Shown here piece after piece: positions 1,781 to 60,513 of a stretch of DNA of 64,000 nucleotides. The stretch's first letter is position 1, and every line of letters begins with the position of its first letter. The translations under genes and the position numbers were made by a program. The notes under the pieces were generated by a model. It saw only the letters and a list, made by a program, of their open reading frames with translations, was not told the origin of the DNA and ran no database searches. The DNA is from Gemmatimonadota bacterium (GTDB taxonomy: Bacteria; Gemmatimonadota; Gemmatimonadetes; Gemmatimonadales; GWC2-71-9): the NCBI GenBank assembly GCA_011390645.1, contig JAABRY010000001.1:7192-71191 (forward strand), in the 5' to 3' direction.

Positions 1781-2716
1781 ATGCAGGGCGGCATCGAGGT
1801 GGTGGACTCCCACACCGAGGGCGAACCGACGCGCGTCGTGATCGACGGCTGGCCCATGCCCACCGGACACACGGTGGCTGATCGGCGCGACACGATGCGC
1901 ACCATGCAGGACGACTTGCGCCGCGCGGTCGTGCTCGAGCCCCGGGGCCACGAGGCGATCGTCGGTGCACTGCTGGTGCCGGCCGATCGCCCGGAGGCGG
2001 CCACGGGCGTGGTCTTCTTCAATGACATCGGCTATCTCGGCATGTGCGGTCATGGCCTCATCGGGGTGGTGCGAACGCTCGAGCATCTCGGGCGCATCAC
2101 GCCGGGCCATGTCGAAATCGACACGCCGGTCGGGCCGGTCGGCGCAGACCTCGACCGCGACGGCACGGTGACCATCCGCAACGTCCCGGCGTTCGTGCAT
2201 GCCCTGGATGTGTCGGTGCACGTGCCGGGCATCGGAACGGTCACCGGCGACGTGGCGTGGGGCGGCAACTGGTTCTTCCTCGCGCACCTCCCGGGCGAGT
2301 CACTGACGTACGAGCGGCGGCGTGAGCTCGTGGCGTGCACCACGCGGATTCGCGAGGCACTGCATGCGAACGGCATCACCGGGGCCGACGGTGGCGAGAT
2401 CGATCATGTCGAATTGCTTGCACCGGGTGAGGGGGGGGCAGATGCTCGCACCTTCGTGCTGTGCCCGGGGGCGGCGTGGGACCGTTCGCCATGCGGCACG
2501 GGGACCTCGGCCAAGCTCGCCGTCCTGCATGCGCGGGGACAACTCTCGCCAGACCAGCGCTGGGTGCAGGAGAGCGTGATCGGTTCGCGCTTCACGGGCT
2601 GGCTGGAGGGCGACGGCGAGACCCTCGTGCCTCGGGTGCAGGGGCGCGCCTACATCACGGCGCGCGCGACGCTGCATCTTGATCCCGCCGATCCATTCCG
2701 CTACGGGCTCGCGTGA
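1781..2716 (+). CDS. 4-hydroxyproline 2-epimerase (proline racemase family)
   Basis: 311 aa. Both catalytic Cys contexts are present (GMCGHG and DRSPCGTGTSA). ATG lies 2 nt after the upstream stop. Confidence 0.9.
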   Translation: MQGGIEVVDSHTEGEPTRVVIDGWPMPTGHTVADRRDTMRTMQDDLRRAVVLEPRGHEAIVGALLVPADRPEAATGVVFFNDIGYLGMCGHGLIGVVRTLEHLGRITPGHVEIDTPVGPVGADLDRDGTVTIRNVPAFVHALDVSVHVPGIGTVTGDVAWGGNWFFLAHLPGESLTYERRRELVACTTRIREALHANGITGADGGEIDHVELLAPGEGGADARTFVLCPGAAWDRSPCGTGTSAKLAVLHARGQLSPDQRWVQESVIGSRFTGWLEGDGETLVPRVQGRAYITARATLHLDPADPFRYGLA

Positions 2717-3834
2717 CGCATCCCGACGTGCTCGTCATCGGCGCCGGCATGGTGGGAGCGTGGACCGCGCTGGGGCTGGCAGAACGCGGGCTGCGGGTCC
2801 TCGTGGTCGATGGTGGCGTGCCAGGGGGGGGGAGCACCGGGGCGGCGATGGGCCACCTGGTGGTGATGGATGACTCGCCGGCACAACTTGCGCTGTGCGC
2901 CCACGCGATGATGCGATGGCGGACGGCAGCGCCTGAGCTGCCGCCGTCCGCGGAATACGATCCCGCGGGCACGCTCTGGCTGGCCTGCAGCGACGACGAA
3001 CTGGCCGAGGCGCATCGCAAGCAGGAAGTCTATGCGGTAGCCGGGGTGAGCACCGAGGTGCTCGATGCCGTAGCGCTGGGGCAGGCGGAGCCTCTGGTCG
3101 CGCCCGGGCTCGCCGGAGGGTTGCGCGTGCCGGGCGATGCGATCTGCTATCCGCCCGCCATCGTGCGCACACTACTGGAGCGCGCGATCGCGCTCGGGGC
3201 GATCGTCATCAATCAGGCGGTGCGCGCCATCCGACCCGGCGGGGCACAACTCACGGATGGTACCTGGCTCGAGGCCGGCGTCGTGGTGGTGGCGGCCGGC
3301 CCGCAGAGCGGGATGCTCGTGCCTGACCTTCCGGTGATCCCGCGCCGCGGACATCTGGTGATCACCGAACGCGCCCCGCGCCGCATCCACCACCAGCTGG
3401 TCGAGCTGGGATACCTCCACTCGGCGCATACGCTGGGGGGGGCATCCGTGGCGTTCAACGTGCAACCGCGAGTGACGGGGCAATTGCTCGTCGGCTCGTC
3501 GCGCGAATTGGTCGGCTTTGCGCCGGGCCTCAATCGCGAGCTCCTCGCCATGATGCTCGCGCGTGCGTCGGCCATCGTGCCGGCACTCGCCGGGATGCGC
3601 GTCATCCGGAGCTGGACCGGCTTCCGGCCGGCCACGCCCGATGCCCTCCCGTTGATCGGCGCCTGGCCGGCCCTCGAGCGCACCTGGATCGCCACCGGCC
3701 ACGAAGGGCTCGGAATCACCCTCGCGCCGGCCACTGCGGACCTCATCGTGGCGGGAATCCTCGGCGAGCCGCCACCCGTGCCGAGTGCCGCATTCGCGCC
3801 GGATCGTCCAATGCCGACGCTGGCGGCCGCATGA
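2713..3834 (+). CDS. FAD-dependent oxidoreductase (DAO family), D-hydroxyproline dehydrogenase beta-subunit-like
   Basis: N-terminal VLVIGAGMVGAW Rossmann motif. GTG start overlaps the upstream stop (GTGA). 373 aa. Confidence 0.8.
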   Translation: MTHPDVLVIGAGMVGAWTALGLAERGLRVLVVDGGVPGGGSTGAAMGHLVVMDDSPAQLALCAHAMMRWRTAAPELPPSAEYDPAGTLWLACSDDELAEAHRKQEVYAVAGVSTEVLDAVALGQAEPLVAPGLAGGLRVPGDAICYPPAIVRTLLERAIALGAIVINQAVRAIRPGGAQLTDGTWLEAGVVVVAAGPQSGMLVPDLPVIPRRGHLVITERAPRRIHHQLVELGYLHSAHTLGGASVAFNVQPRVTGQLLVGSSRELVGFAPGLNRELLAMMLARASAIVPALAGMRVIRSWTGFRPATPDALPLIGAWPALERTWIATGHEGLGITLAPATADLIVAGILGEPPPVPSAAFAPDRPMPTLAAA

Positions 3835-4079
3835 GCGGTGATGTGACGATCCACCTCGATGGGGTCCCCCGCCGCGTGCCCGCCGGGGTGACCCTCGCCG
3901 CGGCACTCTGCAACCTCGAGCACCTGGCGTTCCGGCGTGATCTGGGGGGGGGACCTCGGGCCCCGCTCTGCGGCATGGGCACCTGCTTCGAGTGTCGCCT
4001 CAGCGTCGATGGGGTCGCGGGAACCCGTGCGTGTCTCATCGAGGTCCACGAGGGGATGCGGGTGGAGCTCACCCGATGA
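3831..4079 (+). CDS. (2Fe-2S)-binding small subunit
   Basis: 82 aa with the Cys cluster CGMGTCFECRL...C. ATGA overlaps on both sides. Confidence 0.75.
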   Translation: MSGDVTIHLDGVPRRVPAGVTLAAALCNLEHLAFRRDLGGGPRAPLCGMGTCFECRLSVDGVAGTRACLIEVHEGMRVELTR

Positions 4080-58675: not shown

Positions 58676-58683
58676 CCCGGTCT

Positions 58684-60513
58684 TTACCGTCCCACCGCCT
58701 TCCGCAGCGCGTCTCCCCCCCCCACGACGGGCAGGGTCAGCGACGTCCCATCGAGATCAAGCGTCAGCGCGGTCCCCGGCTGGGGCCAGAGCGTGAAGTC
58801 CCGATCACTCGAGAAGACCATCAGCCCAATGCGCTTGCCGGCGGGAATCACCTGGTCGTCAGGCTGCAGGGTGAAGGTCATCTCCACGAACTCGCCCGGC
58901 ACGAGCGGCGTTCCCTGCACGAGCGACAACCGATTCTGCAGGTCGGCCCATCCGCGGGTAATGACGCTGAAGTTCGGCTGACGCGGCGCGGCATCCGTCC
59001 AGGGCAGTGCCACGAGCCAGACGCTGAGGTTCGCGGCGGGCTTGCTCGAGGCCATCCGCACCGTGATCCGTGCCGTCCCCGAGAGGTGCACTGCCTCGGT
59101 CAGCTCGGGCGTCGCGTAGAGCAGGCGACTGTCGGAACTCACAGCTTGGGCGAGTGCGGCGCCGGACAACTCCACGTCGTCCACGAGCCGCTCGCTGCCC
59201 TGGCCCATCAGCGGACTGAGCGCCAGCGCGCCGAGCTCGCGACCCCCACGGCCGAGATGCAGCGTGACCTCGCTGGCGGCCGGGTGCGGGTACTCTGGGT
59301 AGGCCGTTGGATTGTTGCGTTCATCGCCTTCGCGCACGATCCAGCTCTTGGGGTCCTGCTGCACCCCATTCTCGATGCCATACAGGTAGTGCGAGAACCA
59401 GCGATTCATCATGTCGAGCGGCGGTGGGCCGCCATGGCCGCCCTGGTGGTAGTACACCGCCACATGATTGCCCTGCTTCTGGAGCGCTTCCACGATGCGG
59501 ACACTGTGCTCGGGCATCACGTTCCAGTCATTCCACGCGTGCGCCATCAGCACCGCGGCCCGGACGCCCGGTACCTGCGGCAGGTAGTCGCGTCCGGCCC
59601 ACCAGTCGTTCCAATCGCCGGTCTGCCGATCCATGTTGGCGCGCATCTCGCCCTCGCGCACCGTGGTGTTGCACCAGGCGCGGCGCTCCGGGTTGCCGGA
59701 GTGGATGAAGTCGTAGAGGTAGTCGATGTCCTCGCCGAGCCAGCCACCGGGGTGCCGCACCAGGCCGAAGGAGCGGTAGTAGTGCCAGTAGGATGTGTTT
59801 GGGGCGATCGGGATGATCACCTCGAGCCCCTTCACACCCGTGGTCGCGGCCGCGAGCGGCAAGGTGCCGTTGTACGATGTGCCGGTCATCCCGACCTTGC
59901 CGGTGGACCAGTCCGCACGCACCTCCTCGGTACCGTCACGCGTGGTGAACCCGCGTGCCCTCCCGTTCAGCCAGTCAATGACCGCCTTGGGCGCCAGCGA
60001 CTCGTTGCGTCCGCCGACCGTCGGGCAGCCCTGCGAGAGGCCGGTGCCCGGTGACTCCGAATGCACCACCGCGAAGCCGCGCGGCACCCAGTCCCGGACC
60101 TGCGCGTTGCCGACCCGGGTCCGATCGGGCCGATACGTGATCTCGGGTTGTGAGACGCGGGGGGGGGGAGGCGCGCCGACCTCCTGCTTGACGTCCCAGA
60201 GATGGTCGCGCGAATTGGCTGTGCCAGCGAAGTAGGGGCTCGACTCGTAGACCACCGGCACCTTGAGACCCTCGGCGGTCTGACGCGGTCGGGTCACGCC
60301 GACGTGCACGCGATCCCGCTTGCCGTCACCGTCGGTGTCGAACTCGGTCTCGACCCAGAGTTGCTGGCGAATCCATTGGGTGGAGTCACTGAAGGCTGGG
60401 ACGACTTGTGCCATTCCGTTCTCGAACACGGCACGGGCTGACGCCGTGTTCTGGGCAGCGGCAGGGGCCGCAGCGAGCGCAGCGGCGAGGCAGATTACAG
60501 CAAGGCGAGGCAT
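58684..60513 (-). CDS. Xaa-Pro dipeptidyl-peptidase (S15 / CocE-NonD family), secreted
   Basis: Signal peptide ending AAAQ. Nucleophile GMTGTSYNG. About 609 aa with the layout of PepX-like hydrolases. Confidence 0.85.
   Translation of the reverse strand: MPRLAVICLAAALAAAPAAAQNTASARAVFENGMAQVVPAFSDSTQWIRQQLWVETEFDTDGDGKRDRVHVGVTRPRQTAEGLKVPVVYESSPYFAGTANSRDHLWDVKQEVGAPPPPRVSQPEITYRPDRTRVGNAQVRDWVPRGFAVVHSESPGTGLSQGCPTVGGRNESLAPKAVIDWLNGRARGFTTRDGTEEVRADWSTGKVGMTGTSYNGTLPLAAATTGVKGLEVIIPIAPNTSYWHYYRSFGLVRHPGGWLGEDIDYLYDFIHSGNPERRAWCNTTVREGEMRANMDRQTGDWNDWWAGRDYLPQVPGVRAAVLMAHAWNDWNVMPEHSVRIVEALQKQGNHVAVYYHQGGHGGPPPLDMMNRWFSHYLYGIENGVQQDPKSWIVREGDERNNPTAYPEYPHPAASEVTLHLGRGGRELGALALSPLMGQGSERLVDDVELSGAALAQAVSSDSRLLYATPELTEAVHLSGTARITVRMASSKPAANLSVWLVALPWTDAAPRQPNFSVITRGWADLQNRLSLVQGTPLVPGEFVEMTFTLQPDDQVIPAGKRIGLMVFSSDRDFTLWPQPGTALTLDLDGTSLTLPVVGGGDALRKAVGR

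Follow-up and report, generated by a model that had tools for sequence, protein, structure and literature searches.

A 64,000-nt stretch of a Gemmatimonadota bacterium (GenBank assembly GCA_011390645.1, contig JAABRY010000001.1, positions 7,192 to 71,191; 67.3% GC), which we call the window, contains 24 G or C tracts of 8–10 nt that share the consensus T-G8-[G/C]-A (T-G8-S-A) when read in the G orientation. Our data demonstrate that this word is fixed in length, strand-symmetric, clade-restricted, length-stable, kept far above the level of synonymous sites and imprinted on the encoded proteins. We believe that the tracts are probably a selected genome-wide DNA word read by a protein, a reader that we infer rather than see in the sampled DNA, and the word appears to behave most like DNA uptake sequences or the cyanobacterial element HIP1. 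Long mononucleotide runs cause frameshifts and are normally purged from coding DNA (PMC1378130), a rule contradicted by a G9-type word about every 2–3 kb in ordinary genes across species.

A second peak in the run-length spectrum

The number of G/C runs in the window falls from 102 at 5 nt to 23 at 6 nt and 1 at 7 nt, then rises to 7 at 8 nt and 15 at 9 nt, with 2 runs of 10 nt; the longest A/T run is 5 nt. The preliminary description of this DNA had placed all 24 tracts at their exact coordinates and had counted the runs of 6–10 nt exactly, while putting those of 5 nt too low, at about 80. The peak that it reported at 9 nt and the gap at 7 nt are borne out by our counts and by a codon-aware null. 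In 1000 synonymous-codon shuffles within the 40 confident coding sequences (CDSs) of the window, the expectation was 1.26 runs of 9 nt (maximum 5) and 5.9 runs of at least 8 nt (maximum 14), against 12 and 22 observed. Runs of 5, 6 and 7 nt, by contrast, are depleted relative to the shuffles (78, 15 and 1 observed; 139, 36 and 9.2 expected), as is usual for coding DNA. The G/C run distribution of the window is truly bimodal, and its second peak is beyond the reach of codon shuffles. The spacing of the tracts is unremarkable, with a variance/mean of about 0.9 for counts per 4-kb bin (hand calculation). The sole 7-nt G run of the window (8411–8417, GGT GGG GGG GCC, in an alkaline-phosphatase PafA-like gene) falls one base short of the word, with the downstream A replaced by C.

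The second peak is shared by eight contigs besides the window, which form with it a group at 77–82% nt identity that we call clade A (window, L001, L005, L157/L158, L159, L160, L161 and L162; 138.5 kb). Clade A runs decrease from 1126 (4 nt) through 267 (5 nt) and 44 (6 nt) to 10 (7 nt) and increase again to 21 (8 nt) and 41 (9 nt), followed by 6 runs of 10 nt and 2 of 11 nt. Other Gemmatimonadales (154.7 kb) have 1003, 223, 32 and 9 runs of 4, 5, 6 and 7 nt, respectively, and none of at least 8 nt; up to 7 nt, the spectrum is the same in both groups. The syntenic sisters L163 (GCA_035712665.1) and L164, at 71% nt identity, have zero runs of at least 8 nt, and the alignment of orthologs that had been proposed along with the preliminary description shows GGC, GCG, GCC or different residues in these sisters at the tract sites. 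A more distant clade B (L023/L071) has its own G9–10 tracts at other sites, one site being common with clade A; in all, we sampled about 164 kb of word-bearing DNA. A further ~0.8 Mb of Gemmatimonadota-like metagenome contigs is essentially without tracts, and the metagenome scan with the symporter as query, which we used as background, returned only relatives of at most 79% identity, nearly all tract-free. The window is assigned to Gemmatimonadales by its Xaa-Pro dipeptidyl peptidase gene, whose best matches, with 88% and 86% amino acid identity, are in the metagenome-assembled genomes (MAGs) JANRJE01 and JBBQQJ01.

The clade A contigs come from independent sources, namely NCBI MAGs, JGI metagenomes and Logan assemblies. 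It is true that two-colour Illumina data give poly-G artefacts and that L085 has G-runs at a contig end. However, NCBI, JGI and Logan assemblies from different assemblers agree in placing the tracts in frame at orthologous codons, and contigs from comparable pipelines are without them, which makes an artefact of sequencing, assembly or polishing scarcely credible. Some other G-run-rich sequences were set aside. Five Gemmatimonadales MAGs (L014, L038, L045, L047 and L072) show a smooth geometric decay (in L014, 151, 39, 18, 7 and 2 runs of 5, 6, 7, 8 and 9 nt), a non-bimodal and different signature. The T-G8-S-A pattern is lacking in the G8/G9 pairs found a few bases apart in a G-rich context in L088 (4100–4122 and 12234–12256) and in the G9/G10 of L085 (1–25), which looks like an assembly-end artefact.

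The signal is in the DNA

The earlier consensus, T-G8-[G/C]-A, is correct, as are the flank counts on which it was built. In the G orientation, the base 5' of the tract is T in 16/24 cases (0.23–0.31 in the background of shorter runs) and the 3' base is A in 17/24 (background 0.27–0.39). All five G8 tracts with C as the next base read G8-CA, so that the place of the A is set by its distance of 10 positions from the run start and not by where the homopolymer stops. G8-S-A fits 21 of the 24 tracts of the window and 64 of the 70 in clade A. The choice of flanking codons is far from that expected: Ala after G8 is encoded by the rare GCA in 5/5 cases (usage 0.115, p = 2e-5), the Gly codon closing a tract is GGA in 4/4 (p = 3e-4), the codon before the run ends in T in 7/9 (p = 1e-4) and the codon after it starts with A in 7/8 (p = 1.5e-3). 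In the four best-supported Pro-sense copies, T lies directly 5' of the C-run on the coding strand, which on the duplex is the same A-after-G rule. Because the flank rule is the same in Gly- and Pro-sense copies, the signal is in the DNA and not in codons or peptides.

An effect on translation or on the protein has some appeal, as every tract encodes a Gly or Pro run and GGG-GGG codon pairs are in excess (27 observed, 14 expected); tRNA reuse at such pairs, ribosome pausing or selection for poly-Gly and poly-Pro could be invoked. It is contradicted by the strand symmetry of the word, with the same duplex flanks in genes of either sense. In addition, rare codons are used in the flanks, copies in phases 1 and 2 straddle codons, and homologues retain GG or PPP using other codons. 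We consider this explanation highly improbable. The proportion of tripeptides written as tracts is much alike for both residues, 12 of 29 GGG tripeptides being spelled GGG GGG GGN and about 5 of 13 PPP tripeptides with CCC CCC. The split between senses, which is 19 Gly to 5 Pro (the Gly-sense copies had been given as 18), results from site availability (GG:PP = 187:75).

Of the 24 tracts, 13 are G-runs and 11 are C-runs on the + strand, and the tendency of tracts to be oriented with their genes merely reflects the excess of Gly-Gly over Pro-Pro sites. This bears on polar recombination or translocation signals, of the type of Chi (RecBCD/AddAB) or of the FtsK-orienting polar sequences (KOPS) and SpoIIIE recognition sequences (SRS). 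Chi and KOPS/SRS words are read by DNA motors and are, like the word here, G-rich, dispersed and over-represented. The density of one per 2–3 kb resembles that of Chi in E. coli, KOPS (GGGNAGGG) is, as generally known, one mismatch from G8, and conservation and lineage specificity would also fit. However, the word is longer (10–11 nt, versus 5–8 nt for known Chi and KOPS words) and is without strand polarity in the window: its orientation tracks gene strand under a GC skew of one sign, weakly positive along the whole window, replication direction being taken from this skew only. A signal of this polar type is rather unlikely.

Strand symmetry, dispersion in duplex DNA and conservation in place would suit an architectural element, in which rigid, A-form-like G·C tracts serve as sites for nucleoid proteins or supercoil positioning or, G-runs having the lowest oxidation potential by established chemistry, as guanine sinks for oxidative damage. 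Such a role does not obviously need T, S and A at exact positions, and no bacterial system of this kind at this density is in evidence, so that we view it as quite improbable. Intramolecular G-quadruplexes call for four G-runs in a short span; the window tracts are single runs with non-G, non-conserved flanking sequence. Judged by length alone, the tracts attain the homopolymer length for transcriptional slippage (9 nt or more, about that of the RNA–DNA hybrid).

Maintenance and length stability

The window and L157 have 81% nt identity, with 51.5% of four-fold sites identical. GGG/CCC codons are kept in L157 at 43 of 98 non-tract positions and at 14 of 14 tract positions. In clade A relatives, 32%, 27% and 25% of the window runs of 4, 5 and 6 nt, respectively, and 0/3 of the 7-nt runs are intact; for runs of at least 8 nt, the figure is 29 of 33 comparisons (88%). 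Across six species-level lineages, the tracts are found at the same sites, with the same lengths and the same G8CA or G9A type, which requires purifying maintenance at the nucleotide level. Turnover nonetheless occurs, 2 tracts being shared by the window and L001, 2 found in the window only and 3 in L001 only.

Homologue alignments trace tract origin to point changes at GG or PPP sites and to zero insertions. Tracts also arose by amino acid replacement, from G-A-G to G-G-G at 2824 and from unrelated residues to L-G-G-G at 3944. The imprint on proteins is visible in seven orthologous proteins, which contain 23 GG dipeptides in the window, 20 in L157 and 10 in the sister L163, and 4, 5 and 0 GGG tripeptides, respectively. 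At the Pyr_redox_2 Gly-Gly site near window position 4726, the tract is G9 in L157 (12014–12022) and G10 in the clade B contigs L023 (9549–9558) and L071 (10949–10958); the window and four other clade A lineages have GGC GGC-type codons there, which looks like parallel gain.

Origin by point substitution rather than insertion would also suit a neutral, lineage-specific equilibrium, if dislocation mutagenesis or a repair defect extended G-runs past a threshold by substitution and selection against frameshifts capped them at ~9–10 nt, with no function involved. The appearance of the trait in certain clades is what an altered polymerase or repair gene would bring about, and 7-nt runs are nearly absent, as if they were unstable intermediates. 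However, this model leaves unexplained the A at +10 of the G8-CA copies, with its rare Ala codon, and the 5' T drawn from rare NNT codons. We would also expect its easiest dislocation product, G opposite T, to erase 3' A flanks and not to enrich them. The identity of the spectra up to 7 nt with and without the word indicates no general shift in run dynamics, and 88% retention with preservation of type, at ~20% nt divergence and with four-fold sites near saturation, needs purifying maintenance. A slippage/repair equilibrium, one of three hypotheses put forward in the preliminary description, is therefore poorly supported, and we consider it unlikely.

Another of these hypotheses was that the tracts are hypermutable contingency loci, at which slippage switches genes on and off. 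Phase-variable poly-G/C tracts (Campylobacter, Neisseria, Helicobacter; the 7C run of mycobacterial glpK) are likewise 7–11-nt G/C homopolymers in CDSs, and 8–10 nt is, as generally known, a length that slips in phase-variable genes. Unlike those loci, the tracts here are numerous, of conserved position and length, and bounded by sequence-specific flanks. With about one tract per 2.7 kb, a genome would carry well over a thousand contingency tracts, and these would lie in housekeeping and metabolic genes rather than in surface, restriction or host-interaction genes. Their relative position along genes is uniform (Kolmogorov–Smirnov p = 0.53) and not 5'-biased (contrast PMC2831843), and neither fixed T/A flanks nor the G8-CA variant have any bearing on slippage.

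The lengths themselves are stable. L157 and L158, which represent one species in different samples (99.8% identical), have the same length at 11/11 tracts, 35 site-instances of the hydroxyproline cluster over six lineages show zero indels, and overall we found one ±1 indel in ~43 site comparisons, all between consensus sequences. That indel is in the peptidase gene, where the tract at 60159, G10 in the window and in L001, is G11 in L005 (10346–10356), the +1 change splitting the frame. The extra base may represent a genuine frameshift or off-variant, or else an error in the consensus. Taken together, these data make contingency tracts very improbable. The third hypothesis, a genome-wide selected oligomer, is the one that stands, given a fixed length and flanks obtained through rare codons, strand symmetry, conservation and absence in sisters.

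A word with a putative reader

A unifying model would be a single lineage-specific word, 5'-T-G8-[G/C]-A-3', on either strand and about once per 2–3 kb, placed where the protein tolerates Gly-Gly-(Gly/Ala/Asp) or Pro-Pro-(Pro). It would be written in through the choice of GGG or CCC, through rare flanks (NNT before; GGA, GCA or an A-initial codon after) and, where needed, through amino acid replacement. Its upkeep would depend on selection or recombination-based drive acting on the DNA itself and not on the protein or its translation, and a sequence-specific DNA-handling protein would read it as a genome-wide tag. As for what the tag is for, a self-DNA label of the uptake-sequence type is the most likely specific reading, which we offer as a tentative possibility. 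The competence machinery would then prefer word-bearing DNA, and homologous recombination would spread and restore the copies. Almost as good a fit would be a signal for recombination or chromosome organisation.

The parallel with the DNA uptake sequences (DUS) of Neisseriaceae and the uptake signal sequences (USS) of Pasteurellaceae is extensive. Like the word here, they are short, fixed words of 9–12 bp, occurring once per 1–3 kb in both orientations and mostly inside genes, and they sit in tolerated frames and peptides, make the encoded peptides more frequent, are lineage-specific and absent in sisters, and are positionally stable (PMC2817400; PMC3630211). The tripeptides that uptake sequences encode are reported to be doubled (PMC2817400). 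Our data include the corresponding features, namely a defined word at fixed positions in both orientations, lineage restriction and a change of peptide frequency in tolerated frames. The 24 copies in the 64-kb window and the 70 in the 138.5 kb of clade A would extrapolate to >1000 per genome. The word differs from DUS and USS in being a near-homopolymer, in lying, for all sampled copies but about one, in CDSs, and in having no detected halo of mismatched copies.

HIP1 (GCGATCGC) of cyanobacteria is likewise a hyper-abundant, intragenic and lineage-restricted word that is conserved beyond codon expectation. Its function, long unknown, has lately been linked to transformation efficiency (PMC5861425; bioRxiv 10.1101/2024.09.10.611283). 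However, HIP1 is a palindrome and the target of an orphan methyltransferase, whereas the word here is non-palindromic, less dense and without a known methyltransferase link. A more distant counterpart is the poly-G/poly-C of Caenorhabditis, maintained by DOG-1/FANCJ, which is another unexplained genome-wide excess that needs faithful replication, but those tracts are eukaryotic, non-coding, at least 18 nt long and variable in length (PMC2211496).

Several observations weigh against a selected word of this kind, in addition to the frame-splitting G11 of L005. No reader protein or competence gene was found in the sampled DNA, and the window contains ordinary metabolism only. Many copies use rare codons in their flanks and lie at family-wide, conserved GG or PPP residues, unlike the uptake sequences of Haemophilus and Neisseria, which favour poorly conserved residues and preferred codons (PMC2817400). 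One-mismatch copies are not enriched (32, versus 47 ± 9 expected), a comparison of low power because chance alone yields many G-rich near-misses. If the word were no more than a tag, a G9 homopolymer would be a risky choice in terms of mutation. Finally, density is uneven, a 9.7-kb stretch of L157 without words being followed by 7.5 kb with 11, in the region of the hydroxyproline cluster.

The literature that we searched yielded no description of poly-G tracts or uptake sequences in Gemmatimonadota. To our knowledge, only a few genome-wide words have a known role (USS/DUS, Chi, KOPS and HIP1) and none has been described for this phylum, and we know of no competence, receptor or uptake bias in it. 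A new word of this sort would suggest that an abundant soil phylum, most of whose members are uncultured, has a DNA-handling system so far unrecognised, and natural transformation in Gemmatimonadota could be indicated. It is conceivable, if doubtful, that T-G8-S-A is the first self-recognition tag of the DNA-uptake type outside Proteobacteria. If it were an uptake tag, uncultured Gemmatimonadales would be naturally competent with a word-specific receptor, biased uptake and recombination would have rewritten codons and amino acids at >1000 sites, and the lineage would replicate >1000 in-frame G9 tracts with unusual fidelity. The word is kept at a cost in rare codons and amino acid changes; either there is a strong benefit or drive, or the lineage shows unusual fidelity in copying G9. 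For practical purposes, the word can serve as a marker in binning and in the detection of foreign DNA within these genomes, and homopolymer-aware polishing should not "correct" these tracts.

The tracts in their genes

The 24 tracts of the window are listed in Table 1. All of them lie in coding sequence, one more than previously described, the omitted tract being most likely that at 3944, whose Fer2_4 gene has homologues in every relative. The earlier statement that no tract breaks the reading frame applies to all 24. Most tracts are in codon phase 0 or 2. Their host genes are of ordinary kinds and include those for hydroxyproline catabolism, CopD, SURF1, Ser/Thr kinases, peptidases, symporters and a GHMP kinase. 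Shifts in the frame plot of GC content at third codon positions were considered as candidate frameshifts and rejected: gene boundaries close by account for those at 2824, 19857, 22991 and 58715, that at 3944 reflects the small Fer2_4 gene, and at 5000 tblastx homology passes through in frame.

Table 1. Positions, form and coding context of the 24 G/C tracts of the window (strand, strand on which the tract reads as G; codons in coding sense)
Position	Strand	Tract	Host gene	Codons	Remarks
2431–2438	+	G8-CA	proline-racemase family, 1781–2716(+)	GAG GGG GGG GCA	E G G A; same word in L157, L160, L161, L162
2824–2832	+	G9-A	DAO/D-hydroxyproline dehydrogenase beta, 2713–3834(+)	CCA GGG GGG GGG AGC	G-A-G in word-free relatives
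3435–3442	+	T-G8-CA	DAO, 2713–3834(+)	CTG GGG GGG GCA	L G G A; CTC GGC GGC GCG in sister lineage
3944–3952	+	T-G9-A	Fer2_4 (82 aa), 3831–4079(+)	CTG GGG GGG GGA	L G G G; unrelated residues in sister lineages
5000–5008	+	T-G9-A	Pyr_redox_2, to 5356(+)	GAT GGG GGG GGG ATG	homology crosses in frame
7095–7103	-	T-G9-A	CopD, 6680–7687(-)	CTG GGG GGG GGA	C9 on + strand
11123–11131	+	G9-A	SURF1, 10777–11667(-)	GTC CCC CCC CCT	Pro-sense
13004–13012	-	G9	Zn-ribbon/SH3, ending 13203(+)	ACC CCC CCC CAA	Pro-sense; C9 on + strand; next base T, misfits 3' A
14989–14996	-	T-G8-AA	Big_2 protein, 14091–15680(-)	TCT GGG GGG GGA ACG	imperfect fit to G8-S-A
16373–16382	-	G10-A	Ser/Thr kinase, 15747–17855(-)	CTC GGG GGG GGG GAC	
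16499–16507	+	T-G9-A	Ser/Thr kinase, 15747–17855(-)	TCC CCC CCC CAG	Pro-sense
19024–19032	-	T-G9-A	GHMP kinase, 17875–19164(-)	TAT GGG GGG GGG AGA	
19857–19865	-	T-G9-A	nucleotidyl transferase, 19161–20084(-)	GCT GGG GGG GGG ATC	
20960–20968	-	T-G9-A	sodium:solute symporter, 19970–21766(-)	CCT GGG GGG GGG AGC	
22991–22999	+	T-G9-A	GH109/GFO, 21739–23178(-)	CTC CCC CCC CCA	Pro-sense
27693–27700	-	T-G8-T	metallo-beta-lactamase-fold ORF, 26885–27742(-)	CAT GGG GGG GGT	codons 15–17; true start uncertain, tract may be within divergent leader
28229–28237	+	G9-A	S9 peptidase, 27633–30167(+)	CCG GGG GGG GGA	
29552–29559	+	G8-CA	S9 peptidase, 27633–30167(+)	CCG GGG GGG GCA	
33048–33056	-	T-G9-A	M14 carboxypeptidase, 32487–35303(-)	GGT GGG GGG GGG ACC	
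39449–39457	-	G9-A	SCP2, 39237–39638(-)	AGG GGG GGG GAC	R G G D; only Gly-sense tract in codon phase 1
52877–52884	+	T-G8-CA	choice-of-anchor-B, 52137–53945(+)	GTG GGG GGG GCA	absent in L001
55351–55358	+	T-G8-CA	Ser/Thr kinase, 54170–57325(+)	TTG GGG GGG GCA	kept in L005; GGC GGG GCA in L001
58715–58723	-	T-G9-A	Xaa-Pro dipeptidyl peptidase, 58684–60513(-)	GTG GGG GGG GGA	10 codons before stop; family-wide VVGG site; G10 in L001 and L005, by substitution
60159–60168	+	G10-A	Xaa-Pro dipeptidyl peptidase, 58684–60513(-)	CCT CCC CCC CCC CGC	Pro-sense; family-wide PPPR site

The first 5356 nt of the window contain a complete cluster of the hydroxyproline-catabolism type with a divergent MarR regulator and 5 words in 2.6 kb. 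Its genes encode an aldehyde dehydrogenase, a DHDPS-like protein, a proline-racemase-family epimerase and the DAO beta, Fer2_4 gamma and Pyr_redox_2 alpha subunits. In the more distant Gemmatimonadales L023, L071 and L011, the dipeptidyl-peptidase gene is ~3 kb from this cluster; in the window, the cluster (1–5687) and the peptidase (58.7–60.4 kb) are >50 kb apart, which indicates rearrangement.

The C10 at 16373–16382 and the G9 at 16499–16507 are inverted and 117 nt apart in one Ser/Thr kinase gene. No second inverted pair this close occurs in the window, and the two could form a 9-bp G·C stem in mRNA or single-stranded DNA. A word-free interval of 13.4 kb (39458–52876) is compatible with chance and is possibly recently acquired DNA; its genes are ordinary (two tandem amidases, DUF4097, an agmatine deiminase and N-carbamoylputrescine amidase pair, an SSF symporter and DUF305). 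Rfam and tRNA scans of the window detected only three tRNAs, Leu-GAG, Thr-CGT and Pro-GGG (12339–12511 and 13951–14024). Because tRNA-Thr overlaps its annotated start, the open reading frame at 12505–13203 must begin further downstream.

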